Source of the DNA: Paracoccaceae bacterium
GTDB taxonomy: Bacteria > Pseudomonadota > Alphaproteobacteria > Rhodobacterales > Rhodobacteraceae
DNA length: 42,013 nucleotides
Reading direction: 5' to 3'
NCBI GenBank assembly: GCA_024226455.1
Contig: JAAELR010000446.1
Coordinates: forward strand, 1 to 42,013
The translations under genes and the position numbers were made by a program. Positions 4,604-20,013 of this stretch are shown piece after piece (the first letter of the stretch is position 1; each line of letters starts with the position of its first letter). Under the pieces are notes generated by a model. The model saw only the letters and a program-made list of their open reading frames with translations, had not been told where the DNA came from and ran no database searches.

Positions 4604-4885
4604 ATGATCCGCTCGGAACTGATCCAGAAGATCGCCGACGAGAACCCGCATCTGTTTCAGCGGGATGTTGAGCGGATCGTGAACACGATCTTCGAAGAGG
4701 TCATCGAGGCGATGGCCCGGGGTGATCGGGTTGAATTGCGCGGTTTTGGCGCGTTTTCAGTCAAACAGCGCGATGCGAGGGTCGGGCGCAACCCGCGCAC
4801 CGGCGAATCCGTGCAGGTCGAGGAAAAGCACGTGCCTTTCTTCAAGACCGGCAAGCTGTTGCGGGACCGTCTGAACGGCAACTGA
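4604..4885 (+). CDS. ihfB: Integration host factor subunit beta
   Basis: [11 protein letters not shown]...[29 protein letters not shown]... is canonical IHF-beta/HU fold. GGGGGAAG SD before ATG 4604. Conserved rpsA–ihfB synteny. Confidence 0.9.
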
Positions 4886-4900
4886 CACGAAGGCATTTAG

Positions 4901-5266
4901 ATGCGCTATATCCGTTACGGTATTCTGGCCGTGATCGGCGCCCTGCTGATCACGGTGGCGCTGGCCAATCGCGGGCCGGTAACGCTGCAACTGCTGCCCG
5001 GGGGGCTGGCGGAACTGCTGCGGTTCCCGGCGGCGCTGAACTCTGTGACGTTGCCGCTTTTCCTGGTGATCTTCGCGGGCATCGTGGCCGGGGTCCTGCT
5101 GGGCTTTGTCTGGGAATGGCTGCGCGAGCACAAGCACCGCGCCGAGGCGGCTCGCGGTCGGCGCGAGACGGAACGTCTGGGTCGCGAGGTGTCGAAGATG
5201 CGGACCGACAAGGCCGAAGGCGACGAGGTGCTGGCGCTGCTTGAGGAAGCCGGACCGACGCGGTAG
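4901..5266 (+). CDS. LapA-like (DUF1049) small inner-membrane protein
   Basis: Two TM helices flanking a [11 protein letters not shown] motif, then a basic tail. The position downstream of ihfB matches the conserved alphaproteobacterial arrangement. Confidence 0.65.
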
Positions 5267-5276
5267 GCGGCGGGTG

Positions 5277-5915
5277 ATGAGCGAAATCCGGGTCAAGATC
5301 TGCGGGCTGACGACGTCCGCCAGCGTCGCCGCCGCCGCGGCGGCGGGTGCGGTCTATGCGGGGTTCGTGTTCTTTGCCAAATCACCACGGCATCTGCAGG
5401 TGGCGCGCGCGGCAGGGTTGGCCGCATCGGTGCCGCCGGGCCTGTGCAAGGTAGCTCTGACCGTCAATGCCGATGATGCGACGCTTGACCGGATCCTCGG
5501 TGCGGTGCCCATCGACATGCTGCAGCTTCACGGGCACGAAAGCCCGGACAGGGTGGGCGCGCTGCGCGACCGCTTCGGCCTGCCGGTGATGAAGGCGGTG
5601 GGTGTCGCGGGCGAGGCCGATCTGCCGGCGCTGGTGGAATACGGGCGCGTCGCCGACCAGTTGCTGGTCGATGCCAAGCCGCCGAAGGGGGCAGAACTGC
5701 CGGGCGGCAACGGGCTGGCCTTTGACTGGCGGCTGATTGCCGGGCGGCGCTGGCCGGTGCCCTGGATGCTGGCGGGCGGGCTGACGCCCCGAAACGTGGC
5801 CGAGGCGGTGCGCCTGACCGGGGCGCGGCAGGTCGATGTCAGTTCCGGGGTCGAGAGAGCGCCGGGGGTCAAGGACCCGGGCCTGATCCGGGGGTTTCTG
5901 GACGCCTGCAAATGA
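5277..5915 (+). CDS. trpF: N-(5'-phosphoribosyl)anthranilate isomerase
   Basis: [13 protein letters not shown]..., LQLHGHES..., VDVSSGVE... are TrpF motifs. The longer upstream ORF start (5106) overlaps lapA and is rejected. Confidence 0.9.
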
Positions 5916-6364
5916 CCGTGCGGTTTCGCAAAGCGACACGCGCGGACATTCCCGCAATTCTGGCCCTGTTGCGCGACGACGTGCTGGGGGCGGCGCGAGA
6001 GAACCGACCGCCCGGCGACTATCTTGCCGCCTTCGACAGGATGCAGCAGGAGGCCGCCAATTGGGTCATCCTCGGCCAGGAGGATGACGGCAGCATTGTC
6101 GCCACTTATCAGCTGACCTTTGTCTCGGGCCTCTCGCTTGGCGCGACGCGGCGGGCCCAGATCGAAAGCGTGCGCGTCTCCGGCACCCGGCGCGGCCAGC
6201 GTATTGGCGAGGCGATGATTGCCGATGCCGAGGCCCGGGCCCGCGACGCCGGTTGCACCTTGCTGCAATTGACCATGAACGCAGCCCGTGACGATGCGCG
6301 CCGTTTCTACGAACGTGCCGGCTTTACCGCCAGCCATATAGGCTTTAAACGCGATCTGACCTGA
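5912..6364 (+). CDS. GNAT family N-acetyltransferase
   Basis: 150 aa. Acetyl-CoA-binding motif ([22 protein letters not shown]) and a C-terminal ...FYERAGF... segment. Start overlaps the trpF stop (ATGA). Confidence 0.8.
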
Positions 6365-6380
6365 GCGGAGGGCAAGCGAC

Positions 6381-7628
6381 ATGGCCGAAGATCTGATCAA
6401 CAGCTTCCTGTCCGGACCGGACGAAAACGGACGGTTCGGCAAGTTCGGCGGGCGCTTCGTTTCCGAGACGCTGATGCCGCTGATCCTCGATCTGGAAGCG
6501 GAATTCGAGAAAGCCAAGACCGACCAGAGCTTCTGGGATGAGATGGACTATCTTTGGAAGCACTACGTGGGCCGCCCCAGCCCGCTCTACTTTGCCGAGC
6601 GCCTGACCGAACGGCTTGGCGGTGCCAGGGTCTATTTCAAGCGCGATGAGTTGAACCACACCGGTGCGCACAAGATCAACAACGTGCTGGGCCAGATCAT
6701 CCTGGCTCGCCGCATGGGCAAATCCCGCATCATCGCCGAGACCGGTGCCGGCCAGCACGGCGTCGCCACCGCCACGGTCTGCGCCAAGTTCGGGCTGAAA
6801 TGCATCGTCTATATGGGCGCCCATGACGTGCGGCGCCAGGCGCCGAACGTGTTCCGCATGCGGCTGTTGGGCGCCGAGGTGATCCCGGTCACTTCCGGTC
6901 GCGGCACGCTGAAGGATGCGATGAACGACGCGCTGCGCGACTGGGTCACCAATGTGCGCGACACGTTCTATTGCATCGGCACGGTGGCAGGCCCGCATCC
7001 CTATCCGGCCATGGTGCGCGACTTTCAGTCGATCATCGGCAAGGAAGCCAAACAGCAGATGGCCGAGGCCGAGGGCCGCCTGCCCGATACCGTCATCGCC
7101 GCCATCGGCGGTGGCAGCAACGCCATGGGCCTGTTCTATCCCTTCCTCGACGACAAGTCCGTCAGGGTCATCGGTGTGGAAGCCGGCGGCAAGGGCGTCG
7201 ACGACCGCATGGAGCATTGTGCCAGCCTGACCGGCGGCCGTCCCGGTGTGCTGCACGGCAACCGCACCTATCTGCTGCAGGACGATGACGGCCAGATCCT
7301 GGAAGGTTTCTCGATCAGCGCCGGGCTCGACTATCCCGGTATCGGGCCAGAGCATTCCTGGCTGCATGAAACTGGCCGGGCCGAGTATGTCTCAATCACC
7401 GACGTCGAAGCGCTGGAGGCGTTCCAGCTTTGTTGCGAGACCGAGGGCATCATCCCGGCGCTGGAGCCGAGCCATGCCCTGGCCCATGTGATGAAGATCG
7501 CCCCCTGCCTGCCCGCCGACCACATCATCTGCATGAACATGTGCGGTCGCGGTGACAAGGACGTGCAGACCGTCGCCAAGCATCTGGGCTTTGACATGAG
7601 CGACACCGAAGGCCGCGACGCAGGGTGA
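6381..7628 (+). CDS. trpB: Tryptophan synthase beta chain
   Basis: 415 aa. [13 protein letters not shown]..., HTGAHKINN (PLP lysine region) and GGGSNAMG motifs. Confidence 0.95.
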
Positions 7629-7640
7629 AACAACCGAAAA

Positions 7641-7658
7641 CCCCAAATCGCTTTGGGG
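7641..7658. terminator. Terminator-like hairpin CCCCAAA-TCGC-TTTGGGG downstream of trpB
   Basis: Perfect 7-bp stem 12 nt after the trpB stop. The U-rich tract is on the opposite strand only, so function on the + strand is uncertain. Confidence 0.4.
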
Positions 7659-7904
7659 ACGGTTCGGAGCGGGCGCTTGGCCGGTCGCCATTTTCATTTA
7701 TTGCGCAACTGCGCAATTTTGTTGCGTGAGCGTCACAGCGGCAGTTGGACCGGAAATCAAGGTTTGAGCGAATCCCATCCGATACCCTATGCATGGCGTC
7801 CCGAGCCTGTTGGATCGGACCCTAGCGGGCAGGGGTGATCACCCTCCCTGTGCGGACGGGCACTGCCCGTTGCCGTATGCCAGGGCCGTGACGGGGGTTT
7901 GGGC

Positions 7905-7980
7905 GCGATCATGTAGCTCATCGGTAGAGCATCAGATATTTAATCTGACTGTAGCGGGTTCGAGTCCCGCCATGGATCGC
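7905..7980 (+). ncRNA. tRNA-like element or tRNA pseudogene: canonical D-arm and T-arm, noncanonical anticodon loop UAUUUAA (A at position 33) and imperfect acceptor stem; overlaps the next tRNA by 2 nt
   Basis: D-arm TAGCTCATCGGTAGAGC and T-arm GCGGGTTCGAGTCCCGC are textbook. Anticodon stem TCAGA/TCTGA is perfect, but the loop TATTTAA is AT-rich with A33. Acceptor pairing needs either 2 mismatches (GATCATG/CATGGAT) or a 9-bp stem with a 1-nt bulge (GCGATCATG/CATG-G-ATCGC). No encoded CCA. Confidence 0.35.
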
Positions 7981-8065
7981 AAATGAGGCGAAACTGGTTG
8001 ACGCGCATCGTTCAGGGCGATGTGACCGAAAGGTCATACGGGTTCGAATCCCGTCATTTGCTCCA
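7979..8065 (+). tRNA. tRNA-Leu (anticodon CAG), class II with long variable arm and encoded CCA
   Basis: Acceptor GCAAATG/CATTTGC (7 bp perfect). D-arm GCG-AAACTGGTTGA-CGC. Anticodon stem CATCG/CGATG with loop TTCAGGG (CAG, U33, G37). Variable arm GACC-GAAA-GGTC. T-arm ACGGG-TTCGAAT-CCCGT. Discriminator T + CCA. Confidence 0.8.
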
Positions 8066-8423
8066 CGCCCGAAAGGGCGCCGGCCTGTCACGCCGGACCG
8101 TTCTAAAAGCGGTTCAACATATCGGGGTCCGGGATTGTCCTCGCGGGGGCGGTCCCAGCCAACGCGGCCTTCGGTTGGCAGAGGAGGGGCTTGCTTTCGC
8201 TCTGGCCGGAGACAGGATGACGGCCAGGCGCCAAGTGGCCGGGCAGGTGGGTTCAGCCCGCCGCCCCGCCGGGTGGTCCCTTAGGCCCGCTCGCCTGCCT
8301 TCCGCTTCGGGACATGGCAGAGGGCGGTTCCGGGCCTTACAGATTTCTGCCTGTTGGCAATGGTGCCCATAGCTCACACCTGACATGCGTTACCGCATGC
8401 AACTCACTGCAAACCAAAGGGGA

Positions 8424-8436
8424 TCGCAAATTGCGA
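8424..8436. promoter_or_regulatory. Perfect palindrome TCGCAAATTGCGA about 32 bp upstream of the SPFH gene start; candidate operator
   Basis: Read directly. Lies between the putative promoter region and the strong AAAGGAGAG SD. Confidence 0.3.
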
Positions 8437-8467
8437 CGACGATAGGACGACACGAAAGGAGAGACCA

Positions 8468-9544
8468 ATGATGCGGCTTATCGAACATATGATCGTGATA
8501 GACCGGTTCACCGTCAGCGAGACCCAGCGCGTGCTGGTGCTGCGGCACGGGCGCTTTCACGCCATTCTCGGCGCCGGAGAGCACCGCCTGAAGCGGCGCG
8601 GAACCGAGCGGCATGTCTTCGATGTGCAGGCTCTGCGTTTCGTGACGCCTTTCGAGGATGCCCTGTGGCGCGAGCGCCCGGAACTGGCCCACGCGCATCT
8701 GACGCGCTTTGAGACCGGGGCCGGCGAGCTGGCCGTCATCTTTCGTGACGGTCGTCCCGCAGAGGTGCTGCGGCCCGAAACCCGCGCCACCTTCTGGACG
8801 GACGCGGGGCCCTGGACCGCCGAGACTGTGGACGTGGGCGAGACCCTGGCGGTGCCCGCCGCGATGGCGCGGCGTCTGCAGCGGCTGGTCCGCGTTCCGG
8901 TGACGGCCGTAGAGGTGCCCGAGGGTCATGTGGGCCTGATGAGCGTCGATGCCGAGGCAGGCGGCATTCTGCGGGCCGGTCTGCACCGGTTCTGGGATGT
9001 GGGCCGCAAGGTGGCGGTGGAGCTGGTGGATACCCGCTGGCGGACCCATGACGTGACGGGCCAGGAGATCCTGACCCGCGACCGTGTCACCCTGCGGGTC
9101 AACATCGCGGCGGCGTTCCGGGTCACTGACCCCGAACGTGCGGTGGCCACGGTGAAGGACTTCACCGAGGCGTTGCACAAGGCGCTGCAGTTGGCCTTTC
9201 GCAAGACGCTGGGGGCGCTGACGCTGGACGCGATGCTGGCCGACAAGGTCACCGTCGACGCCGAGGCCGCCGCGGCGGTTCGGGCCGAGATGGCGGAGAT
9301 CGGCATCGAGGTGGGCGAGATCGCGCTGAAAGACGTGATCCTGCCCGGCGAGATGCGCGAGATCCTGAACCAGGTCGTGGCGGTGCAGAAAGAGGCCGAG
9401 GCCAATGTCATCCGGAGGCGCGAAGAAACCAACGCCACGCGCAGCCTGCTGAACACCGCCAAGGTGATGGCCGAGAACCCGGTGATGCTGCGGCTGAAAG
9501 AGCTGGAAGCTCTGGAGGCGATTGCGGCAAGGTCGAACGGCTGA
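8468..9544 (+). CDS. SPFH/band-7 (slipin/stomatin-like) domain protein with an approx. 170-aa non-membrane N-terminal extension
   Basis: C-terminal half matches the SPFH fold (TRDRVTLRVNIAAAFRVTDPERAV..., EIALKDVILPGEMREILNQVVAVQKEAEANVIRRREE). No N-terminal TM helix. Strong SD before ATG 8468. Confidence 0.8.
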   Translation: MMRLIEHMIVIDRFTVSETQRVLVLRHGRFHAILGAGEHRLKRRGTERHVFDVQALRFVTPFEDALWRERPELAHAHLTRFETGAGELAVIFRDGRPAEVLRPETRATFWTDAGPWTAETVDVGETLAVPAAMARRLQRLVRVPVTAVEVPEGHVGLMSVDAEAGGILRAGLHRFWDVGRKVAVELVDTRWRTHDVTGQEILTRDRVTLRVNIAAAFRVTDPERAVATVKDFTEALHKALQLAFRKTLGALTLDAMLADKVTVDAEAAAAVRAEMAEIGIEVGEIALKDVILPGEMREILNQVVAVQKEAEANVIRRREETNATRSLLNTAKVMAENPVMLRLKELEALEAIAARSNG

Positions 9545-9844
9545 CGGTCCATAACGGGACCGAGGGCCTGATGACAGACCTGGTGCGCCTGCGCGATCAG
9601 GGGTGACCAATAGGGCCGGTTCGGGGCAACCCGGGCCGGCCTGTTTCATGGTCCGGGAAAAAGATTCCTCATTGCAAAGTCGCCGGTACCTGTCGATGCC
9701 GGTCCAGTACCTGCTGGCGCATGGGCACCACCGATCGCCGGGCTTCGGCCCGGCAAAGCCGAACTCGGTCAGCGGATCGCGCGAACAGGGCGGCAAGGGT
9801 TGGCCGAGGACATGGGCCGGGGGATCTATCTGATTGGGTGTCGT

Positions 9845-10873
9845 TCAGGTTTCCTGCGGTTGCCAATCTACCCAGCGGCAGTGGAAATCGGCGCGGCCAA
9901 GCTGCAGGCGACGGTCGCCCGGCCAGAGCCGCAGGGTCAGGGCGGCGCCGGACGTGTCGTCGTCAGCCTCCATTCCGAACCAGGCCAGCGGGGCGTCGGG
10001 GGTGGCGCGGGTGCCGGCGGTCTCGATCAGCGCGGTGGCGCGCAACTGGACGGCAGGGGGGAAATACTGCCAGGCGACAGTGTGACATATCAGGTGGGTG
10101 CTGCCCGGGGCGGGATCTGCCAGCCGGGTGGCCAGCCAGTCGGCGGCGTCGGCCTGGTCGACGGTGGCGCGGGCGCCGGCGATGGCGGCGCGGGTACGGT
10201 TCAGGCGGTCCGGCTGGTCGGGCCAGATATAGGCCAGAAGCCGGGTAGTTCGGGCCGGATCGAGCGGGGTCAGGTCGGTGCCGCGGCGCCCGGTCACGGT
10301 TGGCGTGGTGGGTGGTGGCGGCGGGCCTTTCCAGTCTGGGCGAAGGGTCAGGGCGGGTGCGTCCGGGCCGAAGCGGCATTCGCCGATCTGCAGCGTGTAA
10401 CGGTCCCACATCAGGTTCAGCCCGGCGCTGGCGCCAAGCTCGGAGAGTGTGAGCGGCAGGTGGTATTCGGTGGTCAGCCAGTGGCCCAGGGCGATCAGCA
10501 CGGCACTGCGGCCGACCTCGTTGGTTTGCGGCGGGCGGTTGAGCCAGGCGTCGATGCGGGGCGCGTGGGTGGTGAGAGCGGCGTCGATGGCCGACCATAG
10601 GGCATCGTCGGGGGTGGCGGCGTTCGGCGGATAGTGGGCGGCCAGCGCCGGGGCGGCGCCGTCCAGTACCAGCCCGTGCAGCGCACCCGCGATGCGCAGC
10701 GGCACCGACTGGGTCCGGGCCGAGATGTCGCCGGGCCATTGCAGCAGGCGGTCTGTCAGGGGGGTGCCTTGCCGCAGGCGGTCGGCCAGAAGGCGCAACA
10801 GGCGCGCGGTGAAGGGCGAGCCGAGCCGGCGGCAGGCGATCGTCTGGGTACGCAGGGCGTGGCGCAGGCTCAA
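9845..10873 (-). CDS. Hypothetical protein, probably DUF2332 family
   Basis: 342-aa ORF with TTG start overlapping the pth stop (TTGA). Family assignment is from memory of the DUF2332 N-terminal pattern (...GSPFTARLLRLLADRL...) and is not verified. Confidence 0.5.
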   Translation of the reverse strand: MSLRHALRTQTIACRRLGSPFTARLLRLLADRLRQGTPLTDRLLQWPGDISARTQSVPLRIAGALHGLVLDGAAPALAAHYPPNAATPDDALWSAIDAALTTHAPRIDAWLNRPPQTNEVGRSAVLIALGHWLTTEYHLPLTLSELGASAGLNLMWDRYTLQIGECRFGPDAPALTLRPDWKGPPPPPTTPTVTGRRGTDLTPLDPARTTRLLAYIWPDQPDRLNRTRAAIAGARATVDQADAADWLATRLADPAPGSTHLICHTVAWQYFPPAVQLRATALIETAGTRATPDAPLAWFGMEADDDTSGAALTLRLWPGDRRLQLGRADFHCRWVDWQPQET

Positions 10874-11565
10874 CAGAACCGGTCGACGAGTTTTTGCAGG
10901 GTGCTGCGGGTGTCGGGCGCCGGTTCGGCGGGGCGCTCATCAGGCCTTTCGGCCTTCCTCGCTTGGGTTGCGTCCGCCGCGGATTTGGAAGAGCGCGGCG
11001 GCGCGGTGCGCAGGGCGACGGCGTTCATGAAGCGCCCGGTGTCGCCCGCGGCCAGTTCTGCCGCGCCATCCGAGATGCCGCGCATCAGGTCGTCGAGCCA
11101 GTCGGCATCGGCACGCGCGAAATCGTGCAGCACATAGGCAGAGACCCGGTCCTTGTGGCCGGGATGGCCGATGCCGAGACGCACGCGGTTGTAGCCCTCG
11201 CCCAAAGCTGCATGGATCGAGCGCAACCCGTTATGGCCCGCATGGCCGCCGCCGGATTTGACGCGGGTCTTGCCGGGGGCCAGGTCCAGCTCGTCGTGGA
11301 ACACGGTGATCTGTTCGGGGTCGAGCTTGAAGAACCGTGCCGCCGCGGCGACCGACTGGCCAGAGCGGTTCATGAAGGTCCCGGGCTTCAGCAGCAGGAT
11401 CTTGGTCGACCCGAGCCGGCCCTCGGCGATATGGCCCTGGAACTTGCTACGCCATGGCCCGAAACCGTGATCGGCGGCGATGCGGTCGACGGCCATGAGG
11501 CCGATATTGTGCCGGTGGCCGGCGTATTGCGCGCCCGGGTTGCCGAGGCCGACGAAAAGCTTCAT
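10870..11565 (-). CDS. pth: Peptidyl-tRNA hydrolase with an extended acidic/Pro-rich C-terminal tail
   Basis: MKLFVGLGNPG...HNIG..., GHNG motifs of Pth. Conserved rplY–pth neighbourhood. Confidence 0.9.
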   Translation of the reverse strand: MKLFVGLGNPGAQYAGHRHNIGLMAVDRIAADHGFGPWRSKFQGHIAEGRLGSTKILLLKPGTFMNRSGQSVAAAARFFKLDPEQITVFHDELDLAPGKTRVKSGGGHAGHNGLRSIHAALGEGYNRVRLGIGHPGHKDRVSAYVLHDFARADADWLDDLMRGISDGAAELAAGDTGRFMNAVALRTAPPRSSKSAADATQARKAERPDERPAEPAPDTRSTLQKLVDRFC

Positions 11566-11763
11566 GGGGTTTGTCCGGTTGCTCGTGGGTTTGGGCCGCT
11601 ACCTATGCCAGTCGGCGGATGCGTGCAATGGCTGGTCCGGAGCGTCGCAGACGGCGCTCGGCAAGCCCTTTCGGGCTTTTCTCGCCGTCAGGCGAGGTCC
11701 GCGAGGAGCGTTGCGAAGCGAGCGATGAGCGGCTTGTCCAACTGCGGGTGCGGGTTGCCGGGT

Positions 11764-12630
11764 TCAACGGGACCGGGAGGCGCGTCGCAGCGCTACCAGG
11801 TTCGACACCAGCAGGCCCCCGATCACCACTGCGCCGCCCAGCAGAGCCCATGGGCCGGGGTCTTCGCCGATCACCGCCCAGACCAAAAGCGGCGCCAGCA
11901 CCGATTCCAGCAAGATCAGCAGCGACACCTCGGTCGAGCTGATATAGCGCGGGCCCAGAGTCAGCAGGCAGGTGGCGAGGCCAATGAAGGCGCCGTGGCC
12001 GACAAACAGCTGCCAATGCAGCGGGAAGACCTGCCAGGGGTCGGTGAACAGCCCCAACGCAAAGGCCGCCCCGAAATAGGCTGCCGGGATCGCCGGGATC
12101 ATCGAGATGTCACGCACCTTGCGCACCGCGGTCAGCGCCCCGGCATAGGCGAACGAAACATAGAGCGCCCAGAGGTCGCCCTTCCAGGATGCGATGCCGG
12201 ACGATCCAGAGCCGTAAGCGATGATCGCCAATCCCGCCAGCACCACAGCCATGGTTGCCACCATGCGGCGCCGGATCGGCTCGCCCAGGAATACCCGGCT
12301 GAGGATGGCGGCGAAGATCGGGATCGAGGCGAAGATGAAGACGACGTTGGCGACAGATGTGTTGGTGATGGCCAGCACGAACCCCGGAGTGGTCGTGGCG
12401 ATGATCACGGTATAGAGCGCGCCTGCGCGGCCAGAGCCCAGCACGGCGCGAAAACCGCGTGGCCCCTGAAACAGCAGCACGAAGACCAGCACCACGGTAC
12501 CGGCGGTCAGCCCGCGCCAGAAGGCGGTGACCATCGGGTCGGCCCCGATCAGCCGGACAAAGAGCGAATCCGGCACCACGAAGAGCACGCCCACCGTGGT
12601 GATGGCCAGACCTTTGAGATGCGTGTTCAT
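11764..12630 (-). CDS. DMT superfamily (EamA-like) transporter
   Basis: About 10 TM helices with duplicated EamA-type halves. Start chosen at MNTHLKG (ATG 12630) rather than the upstream in-frame extension. Confidence 0.8.
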   Translation of the reverse strand: MNTHLKGLAITTVGVLFVVPDSLFVRLIGADPMVTAFWRGLTAGTVVLVFVLLFQGPRGFRAVLGSGRAGALYTVIIATTTPGFVLAITNTSVANVVFIFASIPIFAAILSRVFLGEPIRRRMVATMAVVLAGLAIIAYGSGSSGIASWKGDLWALYVSFAYAGALTAVRKVRDISMIPAIPAAYFGAAFALGLFTDPWQVFPLHWQLFVGHGAFIGLATCLLTLGPRYISSTEVSLLILLESVLAPLLVWAVIGEDPGPWALLGGAVVIGGLLVSNLVALRRASRSR

Positions 12631-18821: not shown

Positions 18822-19613
18822 TCAGGCCCGATGGGCTCCGTCGGCCAGCGATTTCACGAACTCCAACACGTCGGTGACGCTGTCGCCGGCGCCGATTCTG
18901 GCCACGATGGCCGAGCCGACCACAGCGCCGTCGGCGACGCGGGCGATGGTCTCGGAGCGCTCTGGCGTCTTGATGCCGAAGCCCACCACCACGGGCAGGT
19001 CGATCGCTGCCTTGATGCGCGCCACCTCTGGCCCGACATCTCCGGCCTCGGCATCCGCGGCACCGGTGATGCCGGTGATCGAGACGTAATAGACGAAACC
19101 GCTGGTGTTGGTCAGCACCTTGGGCAGGCGGGCGTCGTCGGTGGTGGGGGTCGCCAGGCGGATGAAGTTCAGCCCCGCTCTCTGCGCCGGGATGCACAAT
19201 TCCTCGTCCTCTTCGGGCGGCAGGTCGACGATTATCAGCCCGTCGATGCCTGCCGCTTTGGCGTCGGTCACGAACTTGTCGACGCCGCGGCTGTAGATCG
19301 GGTTGTAATAGCCCATCATCACGATCGGGGTCCCGTTGTCGTGTTTGCGGAACTCGGTGGCCATATCCAGCGTCTTTTGCAGGGTCTGCCCTGCCGCCAA
19401 AGCGCGCTGCCCGGCAAGCTGAATGGTCGGGCCGTCGGCCATCGGGTCGGTAAAGGGAATACCCAGTTCGATGATGTCGACCCCGGCGCCGGGCAGGCCC
19501 TTCACGATCTCCATCGAGGTTGCATAGTCGGGATCGCCCGCCATGACATAGGCCAAAAAGGCCTTCTTGCCTGCGGCGTTCAGGGCAGCGAATTTGGCGT
19601 CGATCCGGGTCAT
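18822..19613 (-). CDS. trpA: Tryptophan synthase alpha chain
   Basis: [11 protein letters not shown]...[15 protein letters not shown]...GFGI... The upstream 107-codon in-frame extension of the ORF is rejected (no similarity, runs into an AT-rich intergenic region). Confidence 0.9.
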
Positions 19614-20013
19614 GGGCGTCTCTTTCCTGTCGGTTTGCCCGATGTGCAGAAATTCCGACCGGAAATCAATCGGGCATCTTGACAGCGTGGCGCGCCAGCC
19701 GGTCTCGCGCGATTGTCCGGTCAAGAGGGAAGCGAGCCCTACCCTTTGCCCGGGAAATGGCGGTTCTCGACGAGGATTCGTTGCACGGCCCTTTCGATGC
19801 CAGGTCGAGTTTCTTGGGCGGGCAATGTTTTTTGAACCTGGAAAAAACCGGTAAATCGAAGGGGTTTCCGGCAAGTGGTGCGGCTTTGTTTCGGCAGAGG
19901 GTGGGGGCAGATTGCCGCATATGGCAATATTCATATATTGAAATGAATGAGTATGCTACATGATTGTCATCGACGACATGACCGGCGATGCCGCCGACAA
20001 AGAGGAGATTGTC

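Follow-up and report, generated by a model that had tools for sequence, protein, structure and literature searches.

The stretch analysed here, called the window throughout, comprises 42,013 nucleotides (nt) of a Paracoccaceae bacterium (contig JAAELR010000446.1, positions 1 to 42,013) and carries, in this order, rpsA, a gene for an HU/IHF-family DNA-binding protein, lapA, trpF, a GNAT gene, trpB, a slipin (Band-7/SPFH) gene, a DUF2332 gene and pth. It is an ordinary Rhodobacteraceae-type chromosome, and the locus between trpB and pth is a housekeeping context with an unremarkable GC content. An 839-nt gap separates trpB (6381-7628) from the slipin gene (8468-9544), and within it two tRNA-shaped modules abut at 7907-8065. 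These modules are strictly co-inherited with the slipin gene, and their anticodon loops copy genuine tRNA loops yet switch identity between species and even between strains. From sequence comparison we consider it probable that they are the two modules of a tRNA associated with Band 7 (b7a-tRNA), with a general role as partner of the Band-7 protein in the response to tRNA damage. The principal features are the following.

7907-7978, + strand: element B, a class I tRNA-like module (b7a-tRNA core); ARAGORN, RF00005 48.6 bits, model R1 78.6 bits.
7979-8065, + strand: element A′, a class II tRNA-like module with the Leu-CAG type loop UUCAGGG; ARAGORN, RF00005 47.1 bits.
8468-9544, + strand: slipin (Band-7/SPFH) gene, 358 amino acids (aa); Pfam PF01145 (E 1.6e-30) and stomatin sequence matches in the PDB.

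When ARAGORN was applied to the 42-kb window, exactly two tRNA genes were called, tRNA-Lys(ttt) at 7907-7978 and tRNA-Leu(cag) at 7979-8065, and the Rfam family RF00005, with a gathering score of 29, matched them at 48.6 and 47.1 bits, far above chance (E-values 1.6e-7 and 4.1e-7). Both programs uphold an original prediction, made from the letters of the sequence, of a tRNA-shaped element that abuts a class II tRNA-Leu(CAG)-like element. The sequence of B also agrees with the details given there. The anticodon stem UCAGA/UCUGA (7932-7936 and 7944-7948) has 5 perfect base pairs (bp), the D arm (GCUC/GAGC) and the T arm (GCGGG-UUCGAGU-CCCGC) are canonical, the loop at 7937-7943 is UAUUUAA, of the Lys-UUU type with A at position 33, the discriminator is C, and both CCA and a spacer are missing. 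The acceptor was said to need either mismatches or a bulged helix, and both registers are present, one of 7 bp with G1.U72, A2xA71, U3.G70 and then four Watson-Crick pairs, the other a 9-bp helix with one bulged G that recruits 7905-7906 and 7979-7980. A standard anticodon from the tRNA predictors was to have spoken against the loop assignment; a standard UUU anticodon is indeed called, yet the assignment with A33 is correct. Bacterial tRNA-Lys identity, as read by LysRS, uses A73. B departs from a canonical tRNA-Lys(UUU) in A33, A2xA71 and C73, and its orthologous copies carry 22 anticodons.

The second element has the acceptor GCAAAUG/CAUUUGC, as AU-rich as had been noticed, and an encoded CCA at 8063-8065. 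Its description as a well-formed tRNA-Leu(CAG) stands for the class II shape and the CCA, but two departures from the tRNA consensus had been missed, A instead of U at position 8 and U at position 73. E. coli LeuRS requires A73 and the U8-A14 pair. Thus, from what is expected of a canonical tRNA-Leu(CAG), A′ has the class II shape and lacks U8, A73 and a kept orthologue, as the Leu-like element is absent at this locus in the 77% relative L004 and is represented by a hairpin and a T arm only in many other Rhodobacterales. The variable arm and T arm of A′ align with this "hairpin + T arm" domain 3′ of B, and A′ is its most complete form. A′ therefore belongs with B to one element, in which it is the partner with the CCA, here 3′ of B rather than 5′, and it is no housekeeping tRNA.

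Slipin homologues were gathered by exact-protein look-up and by a scan of one genome per species, which gave a set of 80 loci from Rhodobacterales, Rhizobiales (Mesorhizobium, Devosia, Breoghania, Rhizobium), Sphingomonadales and unclassified metagenome-assembled genomes. In most of the 60 loci of the three orders to which it was applied, ARAGORN placed a single tRNA-like gene or an abutting pair on the slipin strand, 400-560 nt upstream of that gene; the anticodons called were highly varied and some loops had 6 or 8 nt. A covariance model (R1) built from 53 alphaproteobacterial copies of the downstream element, B, detected B in 80/80 loci with enough upstream sequence, its end lying 300-530 nt (median 402) before the slipin ATG, again on the same strand. 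Slipin is the only protein family common to all loci, and a tRNA-like cloverleaf 5′ of, and co-oriented with, a Band-7/SPFH gene was found in the window as well as in all 80 homologous loci. The locus is syntenic after trpB in 28 relatives.

The fold was evaluated on the 53-sequence alignment of B, with shuffles and a slid 3′ partner as controls. Pairs are formed in 93.3% of the cells, versus 73.0% in the shuffles and 37-44% with the 3′ partner slid, and 256 cells are doubly changed versus 79 in the shuffles. Compensatory changes affect every one of the five pairs of the anticodon stem and three pairs of the T stem, whereas the D stem does not vary, and the tertiary 15-48 pair covaries (U-A 27, G-C 15, other 8). 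In the acceptor the inner four pairs hold and the outer three are often unpaired (33/51, 16/53 and 13/53). Because of this support from pairing and covariation, together with the often open outer acceptor pairs, B is described here as an L-shaped tRNA mimic whose acceptor end is loose. A tRNA-like structural RNA had been one of several readings proposed at the outset, and it is the one that fits an element conserved with compensatory changes in 80/80 slipin loci of three alphaproteobacterial orders.

The 7-nt loops of B, 78 in number, carry 22 anticodons, and their flanks are regular: 76 have C or U at position 32, 63 have U at position 33, 67 have A at position 38, and position 37 is taken by A (69) or G (9). 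At position 36, U accounts for 53 and G for 21. A34 occurs in 0/53 NNU anticodons versus 7/21 NNG anticodons, where it is confined to ACG and AAG (Fisher 6e-5), and this distribution matches the rule for real tRNAs. The loops CUGUUAA, CUCAUAA, CUACGAA, UUUAGGU and CUGUCAC recur across different orders, and we take them to be identical to genuine tRNA anticodon loops. U33 is present in 2/9 Lys-type loops (UUU or CUU) versus 61/69 of all others (Fisher 7e-5), and the loop CAUUUAA was found in L025, L038 and L040. Since Lys-type loops are mostly without U33, the A33 of the window belongs to a recurrent pattern.

The closest relative, L001, is 99% identical to the window, and over the 159-nt pair of modules the two differ only at 7937 and 7938, loop positions 32 and 33. 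As L001 has the canonical Lys loop CUUUUAA, A33 is a recent, strain-level double substitution inside the variable loop. Between the same two strains 3/1077 nt differ in the slipin gene and 13/839 positions in the leader (7629-8467 versus L001 5162-6000), indicating that the non-coding RNA evolves faster than the gene. Among Mesorhizobium (66 pairs) the identity was 0.77 at slipin four-fold sites, 0.93 in the B body and 0.47 in the anticodon, and the corresponding values for Ruegeria (21 pairs) were 0.71, 0.89 and 0.48. The anticodon loops of the mimics diverge faster than the four-fold (silent) sites of slipin, in a comparison that is indicative only. Pairing of the B loop with a site in cis was tested and rejected as unsupported: a 6-mer complement is enriched, in 13 loci versus 5.7 +/- 2.1 in shuffles, yet its sites lie scattered, some are common to close relatives, and the same test found no cognate codon for the B loop at a fixed position in cis.

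The upstream partner of B, element A, gave an ARAGORN match in 48 loci, with a CCA end in 32/48. Its loop often has 6 nt (UUUGGG) or is Leu/Pro-like (UUNNGGU), 8-nt loops are found among A-type partners too, and a class II A element also occurs in L049. In many Rhodobacterales A has shrunk to an anticodon-arm hairpin 5′ of B, with the "hairpin + T arm" domain 3′ of B. A split-tRNA model, in which this mini-A, B and the hairpin/T arm form one class II fold around B, gave a weak closing helix of 3 bp in RNAalifold. G3.U70 is found in 19/48 A copies, namely in L049, L050, L051, L055, L061-L065, L068, L070, L072, L075-L077, L081, L082, L085 and L004. Copies of the Rhizobiales/Sphingomonadales type and a few others combine G1-C72, C2-G71 and G3.U70 with, mostly, A73, and their neighbouring acceptor pairs vary. 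As in tmRNA, G3.U70 with those neighbours makes up the alanine identity set, pointing to a possible alanylation of A; A′, unlike these copies, has A3-U70.

Metagenomes were searched with arm patterns of the two chassis. The Rhodobacterales pattern had 0 matches, and the Rhizobiales pattern had matches on 39 contigs, of which 24 were informative. Because 13 of these 24 are slipin-less and tRNA-gene-like, with the other 11 linked to slipin, the Rhizobiales-chassis pattern is not specific. The slipin-less contigs with exact Rhizobiales-type B arms are L090, L096, L097, L099, L100, L102, L104, L105, L113, L114, L122, L123 and L125; their loops (UUUCUAA, CUUCUAA, UUGUGGA and similar) resemble those of ordinary tRNA genes of the Arg-UCU and His types. 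Ordinary-looking tRNA genes thus carry B arm sequences, and the B chassis is therefore very close to genuine tRNAs. By DNA similarity, positions 7660-8470 had only generic tRNA-level matches in phage and plasmid collections (62-72 nt, 78-83% identity), and the A33-UUU loop pattern had 0 matches on viral contigs. A phage link was dropped, as the one distant slipin match in the viral collection proved to be E. coli and none was found.

The conservation extends well beyond the two modules, which appear from the alignments to be the front part of a structured leader or non-coding RNA (ncRNA) of about 750 nt, at about 7700-8467. Its remaining parts are listed below.

7700-7726, + strand: conserved upstream motif ATTGCGCAACTGCGCAATTTTGTTGCG with the dyad GCGCAA-N5-TTGCG; Rhodobacterales alignment, and a terminator-like hairpin in a simple scan.
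7727-7906, + strand: 5′ domain of the leader, with blocks GACCCTAGCGGG, a GC-rich hairpin and GTATGCCAGGGCC (7875-7887); 16 Rhodobacterales loci.
8066-8079, + strand: GAAA-capped hairpin CGCCC-GAAA-GGGCG; read from the sequence, with the same hairpin in L025.
8080-8096, + strand: element D, a third anticodon-arm mimic with the stem CCGGC/GCCGG and the 7-nt loop CUGUCAC; hairpin scan.
8097-8416, + strand: 3′ domain of the leader, GC-rich with many hairpins and the block GGTCCGGG at about 8127-8134; Mesorhizobium and Rhodobacterales alignments.
8417-8445, + strand: Shine-Dalgarno (SD)-like AAAGGGGA and a mini upstream open reading frame (mini-uORF), TTG CGA CGA CGA TAG (8431-8445); the same uORF in at least 29 Rhodobacterales loci.

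Compensatory changes in hairpins and indels of lengths not divisible by three mark the whole stretch between the upstream motif and the ATG, in the Mesorhizobium as well as the Rhodobacterales alignment. In the 5′ domain the hairpin changes are compensatory across the 16 Rhodobacterales loci, and Mesorhizobium has a homologous GTAT[GA]C block. The upstream motif probably serves the leader RNA as its promoter or operator; a scan found no sigma-70 consensus. Its dyad (7704-7726) and a second one around the uORF start (8423-8435, TCGCAA-A-TTGCGA) have common half-sites and are both conserved in Rhodobacterales, and they could be operators for one regulator or RNA hairpins. A hairpin equivalent to D, with a 5-bp stem and a variable loop [CU]U-NNN-R-N, is present in 58/80 loci, and position 36 of these is C in 26, G in 15, U in 10 and A in 7. 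We take the loop of D in the window, CUGUCAC, to be the tRNA-Asp anticodon loop.

The original prediction had called 8066-8467 gene-free. This is right in that no protein gene with coding-like GC3 (no such open reading frame (ORF) in the 3′ domain, 8097-8416) is found there, but the region is a conserved structured RNA and includes the 5-codon mini-ORF. The latter, fMet-Arg-Arg-Arg-stop, ends 22 nt before the slipin ATG, and in the Rhodobacterales loci the frame is kept and the stop varies between TAG, TAA and TGA. Short equivalents of one and two codons are ATG ACN TGA in Rhizobiales and GTG AGC TGA in Sphingomonadales, and the conserved SD and mini-uORF stand 25-50 nt before the slipin SD. 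The mini-uORF could sense the supply of tRNA-Arg(ICG) or simply hold a ribosome. No intrinsic terminator was found between the tRNA-like modules and slipin, and a search of the intergenic region against Rfam release 15 at E<=5 returned only tRNA, plus a sub-threshold YrlA T-arm match.

The slipin sequence has no obvious N-terminal hydrophobic helix, and its AlphaFold2 model (pLDDT 83) consists of N-terminal beta modules, the SPFH domain and a long C-terminal helix of 60 residues. The beta-rich modules of residues 1-185 (window 8468-9022) were modelled at pLDDT 87, and to judge from this model they may form a domain not described before, in place of the usual membrane anchor. In Foldseek the full-length model matched stomatin, HflK and the major vault protein (MVP) over 406-461 columns, in long and gapped alignments with E of about 1e-11. 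When residues 1-185 alone were compared with the PDB, no significant match was obtained, and the MVP probability was only 0.23. The idea of a bacterial vault was therefore rejected, and no vault-like protein is claimed: the N-terminal part is without a significant fold match, and the likeness to MVP is that of the SPFH shoulder and helix only. PADLOC gave no defence-family match for slipin.

Two observations concern the surroundings of the gene. In L002 (2436-8085), a 77% relative, ORFs of 373 aa and of more than 1457 aa follow slipin on the same strand and have no Pfam match; L003 has the same genes. In the window trpB (6381-7628, + strand) and trpA (18822-19934, - strand) lie about 11 kb apart on opposite strands, with the slipin module, pth, the L25 gene and transporter genes between them.

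The b7a-tRNA is named in a preprint (bioRxiv 10.1101/312249), whose text cites Burroughs and Aravind 2016 (NAR 44:8525) for its prediction in RNA-repair operons. The same preprint defines the class by the pair of Band-7 and tRNA-like elements, and it reports that b7a-tRNA and YrlA sometimes swap partners. We compared the window with Burkholderia cenocepacia L088 (NZ_CP091013.1), in which a divergent rtcR is followed by a tRNA-like gene and the genes for Band-7, RtcB (PF01139, 2e-130) and RlaP (PF10127, 3e-95). In tblastn the window slipin matches the L088 Band-7 protein with 37.6% identity over residues 13-338 (E 7e-53), which places the two in the same family. Model R1 detects the L088 tRNA-like gene at 4663-4736 (58.2 bits, E 6e-17), so that the RNA, too, has a homologue in a ligase-linked operon. 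The anticodon arm of this full tRNA-like gene is closed by GCCGGC-GAAA-GCCGGC. A truncated tRNA-like element, with the acceptor GGGGCGC/GCGCCCC and a T arm, lies directly before it at 4612-4661.

Enterobacteria have a related arrangement. In E. coli a distant slipin homologue is directly followed by an RlaP gene (PF10127), and in Citrobacter slipin and an RlaP-type nucleotidyltransferase gene have rtcR divergently adjacent. The Citrobacter intergenic region (L089 4690-5015) contains a sigma-54-like TGGCAC-N5-TGGCA motif and only a T-arm-like remnant. The slipin and RlaP-type accessory operon is found in 1632/5426 complete E. coli genomes. In E. coli L087 (NZ_CP104371.1, 5860-6168) a sigma-54-like TGGCAC-N5-T(C/G)GCA motif precedes a leader with only the T-arm-like CGGGUUCGAUUCCCG, and the PGAP annotation has no RNA at the E. 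coli slipin-RlaP locus. RlaP extends damaged RNA 3′ ends by one or two nucleotides, and in aminoacylation assays heavily damaged tRNA did not regain its function without it (PMC12776372).

With these data, the identity of the modules as b7a-tRNA and a general role beside the Band-7 protein are the probable reading. By analogy with Ro60 and its tRNA-like Y RNA, YrlA, the RNA would be the cognate partner with which the Band-7 scaffold responds when anticodon nucleases damage tRNA. The anticodon arms might be baits, decoys or specificity adaptors, directed at enzymes with a recognition of anticodon loops, those on display being mostly of the ANN-decoder type in B, mostly Leu/Pro in A and mostly of the GNN-decoder type in D, and the turnover of the loops may reflect an arms race with enzymes that read them. 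RNase P and 3′ processing would probably free the CCA-ending module and leave the remainder on the slipin mRNA. Any specific bait mechanism is much less likely than the identity and general role. One such scheme, which we regard as doubtful, takes the leader as an array of up to three anticodon-arm baits (of the ANN-, CNN- and GNN-decoder types) whose loops are under diversifying selection to match or resist the tRNAs targeted by the anticodon nucleases that a lineage encounters, where cleavage or binding of a bait, with stalling on the CGA-rich mini-uORF, would switch on a slipin cage in cis. If this were true, the bait array would be a sensor of tRNA-targeting toxins that is encoded in RNA, evolves fast and works with no dedicated ligase beside it.

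Several points weigh against this interpretation. The b7a-tRNA was experimentally unvalidated as of the 2018 preprint (bioRxiv 10.1101/312249). Within 3 kb of slipin the alphaproteobacterial loci have neither RtcB, RlaP and RtcR nor any other enzyme of repair, and none is found among the Pfam-scanned window proteins, so the link to repair rests on protein homology at 33-43% identity. The enterobacteria have only the T-arm-like remnant upstream of slipin, so that the family does not have a full tRNA mimic throughout. Strict neutrality does not hold for four-fold sites of a GC-rich genome, which is why the comparison of rates is only indicative, and some of the variability of the loops could come from a relaxed constraint at positions 34-35. 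The bait or decoy role is one that we only infer. The absence of a neighbouring ligase, RlaP or RtcR is treated here as a feature of a variant and not as an exclusion, since the pair of Band-7 and tRNA-like elements is what defines the class in the preprint.

Of the other explanations, a purely cis-acting 5′ leader of slipin is unlikely as the whole account, but it is compatible with the b7a-tRNA reading, and both could hold. The modules would then be RNase P/RNase Z processing signals and a stable 5′ structure, which together with the mini-uORF set the stability and translation of the mRNA and have no role in trans or with a protein partner. The fixed position and strand relative to the slipin start codon fit this, as do the conserved, structured and non-coding stretch from the modules to the ATG, the lack of an intrinsic terminator within it, the SD and mini-uORF placed just before the slipin SD, and the enterobacterial RNA, which starts right after the sigma-54-like promoter and runs into slipin. 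However, a processing signal needs neither natural-type loops nor avoidance of A34 nor three anticodon-arm mimics, and loops that diverge faster than silent sites are left unexplained.

Quite unlikely, in our view, is that the elements are extra but genuine tRNAs for decoding (Lys-UUU and Leu-CAG in the window, different isoacceptors at other loci), which share the transcription unit of slipin and switch anticodons for decoding needs or to replace toxin-destroyed tRNAs. Both elements score well above the thresholds of tRNA predictors, the 15-48 pair covaries, Y32, U33, R37 and A38 are retained in the loops and A34 is avoided outside ACG and AAG, as in decoding tRNAs, the Lys loop of L001 is perfect, and Rhizobiales B arms are common to ordinary-looking tRNA genes not beside slipin. 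Nevertheless, the outer three acceptor pairs of B are often unpaired and most B copies have no CCA, the window B (A33, A2xA71, C73) and its Leu-like neighbour (A8, U73) depart from functional tRNAs, A-type partners often have 6-nt or 8-nt loops, and the anticodon arm of the Burkholderia homologue is closed by a GAAA tetraloop. In addition, one chassis carries anticodons for at least 11 amino acids, and the acceptor identity would therefore be mismatched in most cases. A decayed tRNA pseudogene (perhaps formerly Lys-UUU) beside a real tRNA-Leu, or the scar of a mobile-element integration at tRNA-Leu, both raised in the original prediction and suggested by the A33, the acceptor mismatches, the missing CCA and the AU-rich Leu acceptor of this one strain, is refuted by the comparative data and has a negligible probability, given the compensatory changes in 80/80 loci of three orders, a strongly constrained body (93% of cells pair versus 73% shuffled) with variation confined to the loop, conservation of the remaining intergenic region, kept synteny, unremarkable GC, the housekeeping context between trpB and pth, no integrase among the window proteins scanned against Pfam and no direct repeat of the tRNA 3′ end in 5000-12000.

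If the b7a-tRNA reading is correct, the finding bears on one of two predicted pairs of scaffold and ncRNA cofactor in bacterial RNA repair, Band-7 with b7a-tRNA, the other being Ro60 with Y RNA. The present data add that the pair, as a unit standing alone, precedes each of the slipin homologues that were sampled from three alphaproteobacterial orders; that the RNA is far larger than a tRNA, with several anticodon-arm mimics; and that the mimics follow the rules of natural anticodons although their change is faster than that of silent sites, even from strain to strain. The loops, nucleotides and strains described here are testable handles on the targets of recognition by the RNA and, through them, on the function of cytosolic SPFH cages. 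Annotators will keep miscalling the elements as extra tRNA genes with arbitrary isotypes, which distorts analyses of tRNA repertoire and codon usage in Alphaproteobacteria.

Among known systems, the vault particle, made of MVP with its SPFH-like shoulder and of vault RNA, likewise joins an anchor-less, cage-forming SPFH-type protein to a small structured RNA. The resemblance of slipin to it is no more than that common to all SPFH proteins, and the vault is an analogy rather than a case of membership. Lys-specific anticodon nucleases cut at U33/U34. Phage-encoded tRNAs with altered anticodon loops reportedly escape anticodon nucleases, as van den Berg et al. in 2023 and Burman et al. in 2024 are said to have found. 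There, as here, the change is confined to the anticodon loop of a conserved body, and 7/9 of the present Lys-type loops are without U33. Those, however, are decoding tRNAs on phage genomes, whereas the present element is chromosomal and slipin-linked and was not found with slipin on viral contigs.

YrlA, the Y RNA with a tRNA-like domain (RF02553) that partners Ro60/Rsr in rsr-yrlBA-rtcBA operons, is likewise a tRNA-mimicking ncRNA beside a ring or cage scaffold in an Rtc context. The window, however, reaches only 18.6 bits on RF02553 (gathering score 69), in the T-arm region only, and no Ro60/TROVE gene was found among the scanned window proteins; unlike the YrlA effector domain, the window elements keep a complete anticodon arm. 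The b7a-tRNA/Band-7 operon shares with the window a tRNA-shaped gene directly 5′ of a Band-7/slipin gene on the same strand, a slipin homologous to the Burkholderia Band-7 protein over nearly its full length, and a tandem layout, which Burkholderia has as a truncated and a full element. Set against b7a-tRNA as the 2018 preprint describes it, the alphaproteobacterial form is a distinct, stand-alone variant: the module has no adjacent RNA ligase, RlaP or RtcR, its anticodon loops are of natural type and switch quickly where Burkholderia has a GAAA tetraloop, and in the window the second module is class II, lies 3′ of B and is followed by a 400-nt structured spacer with a third anticodon-arm mimic and the mini-uORF.

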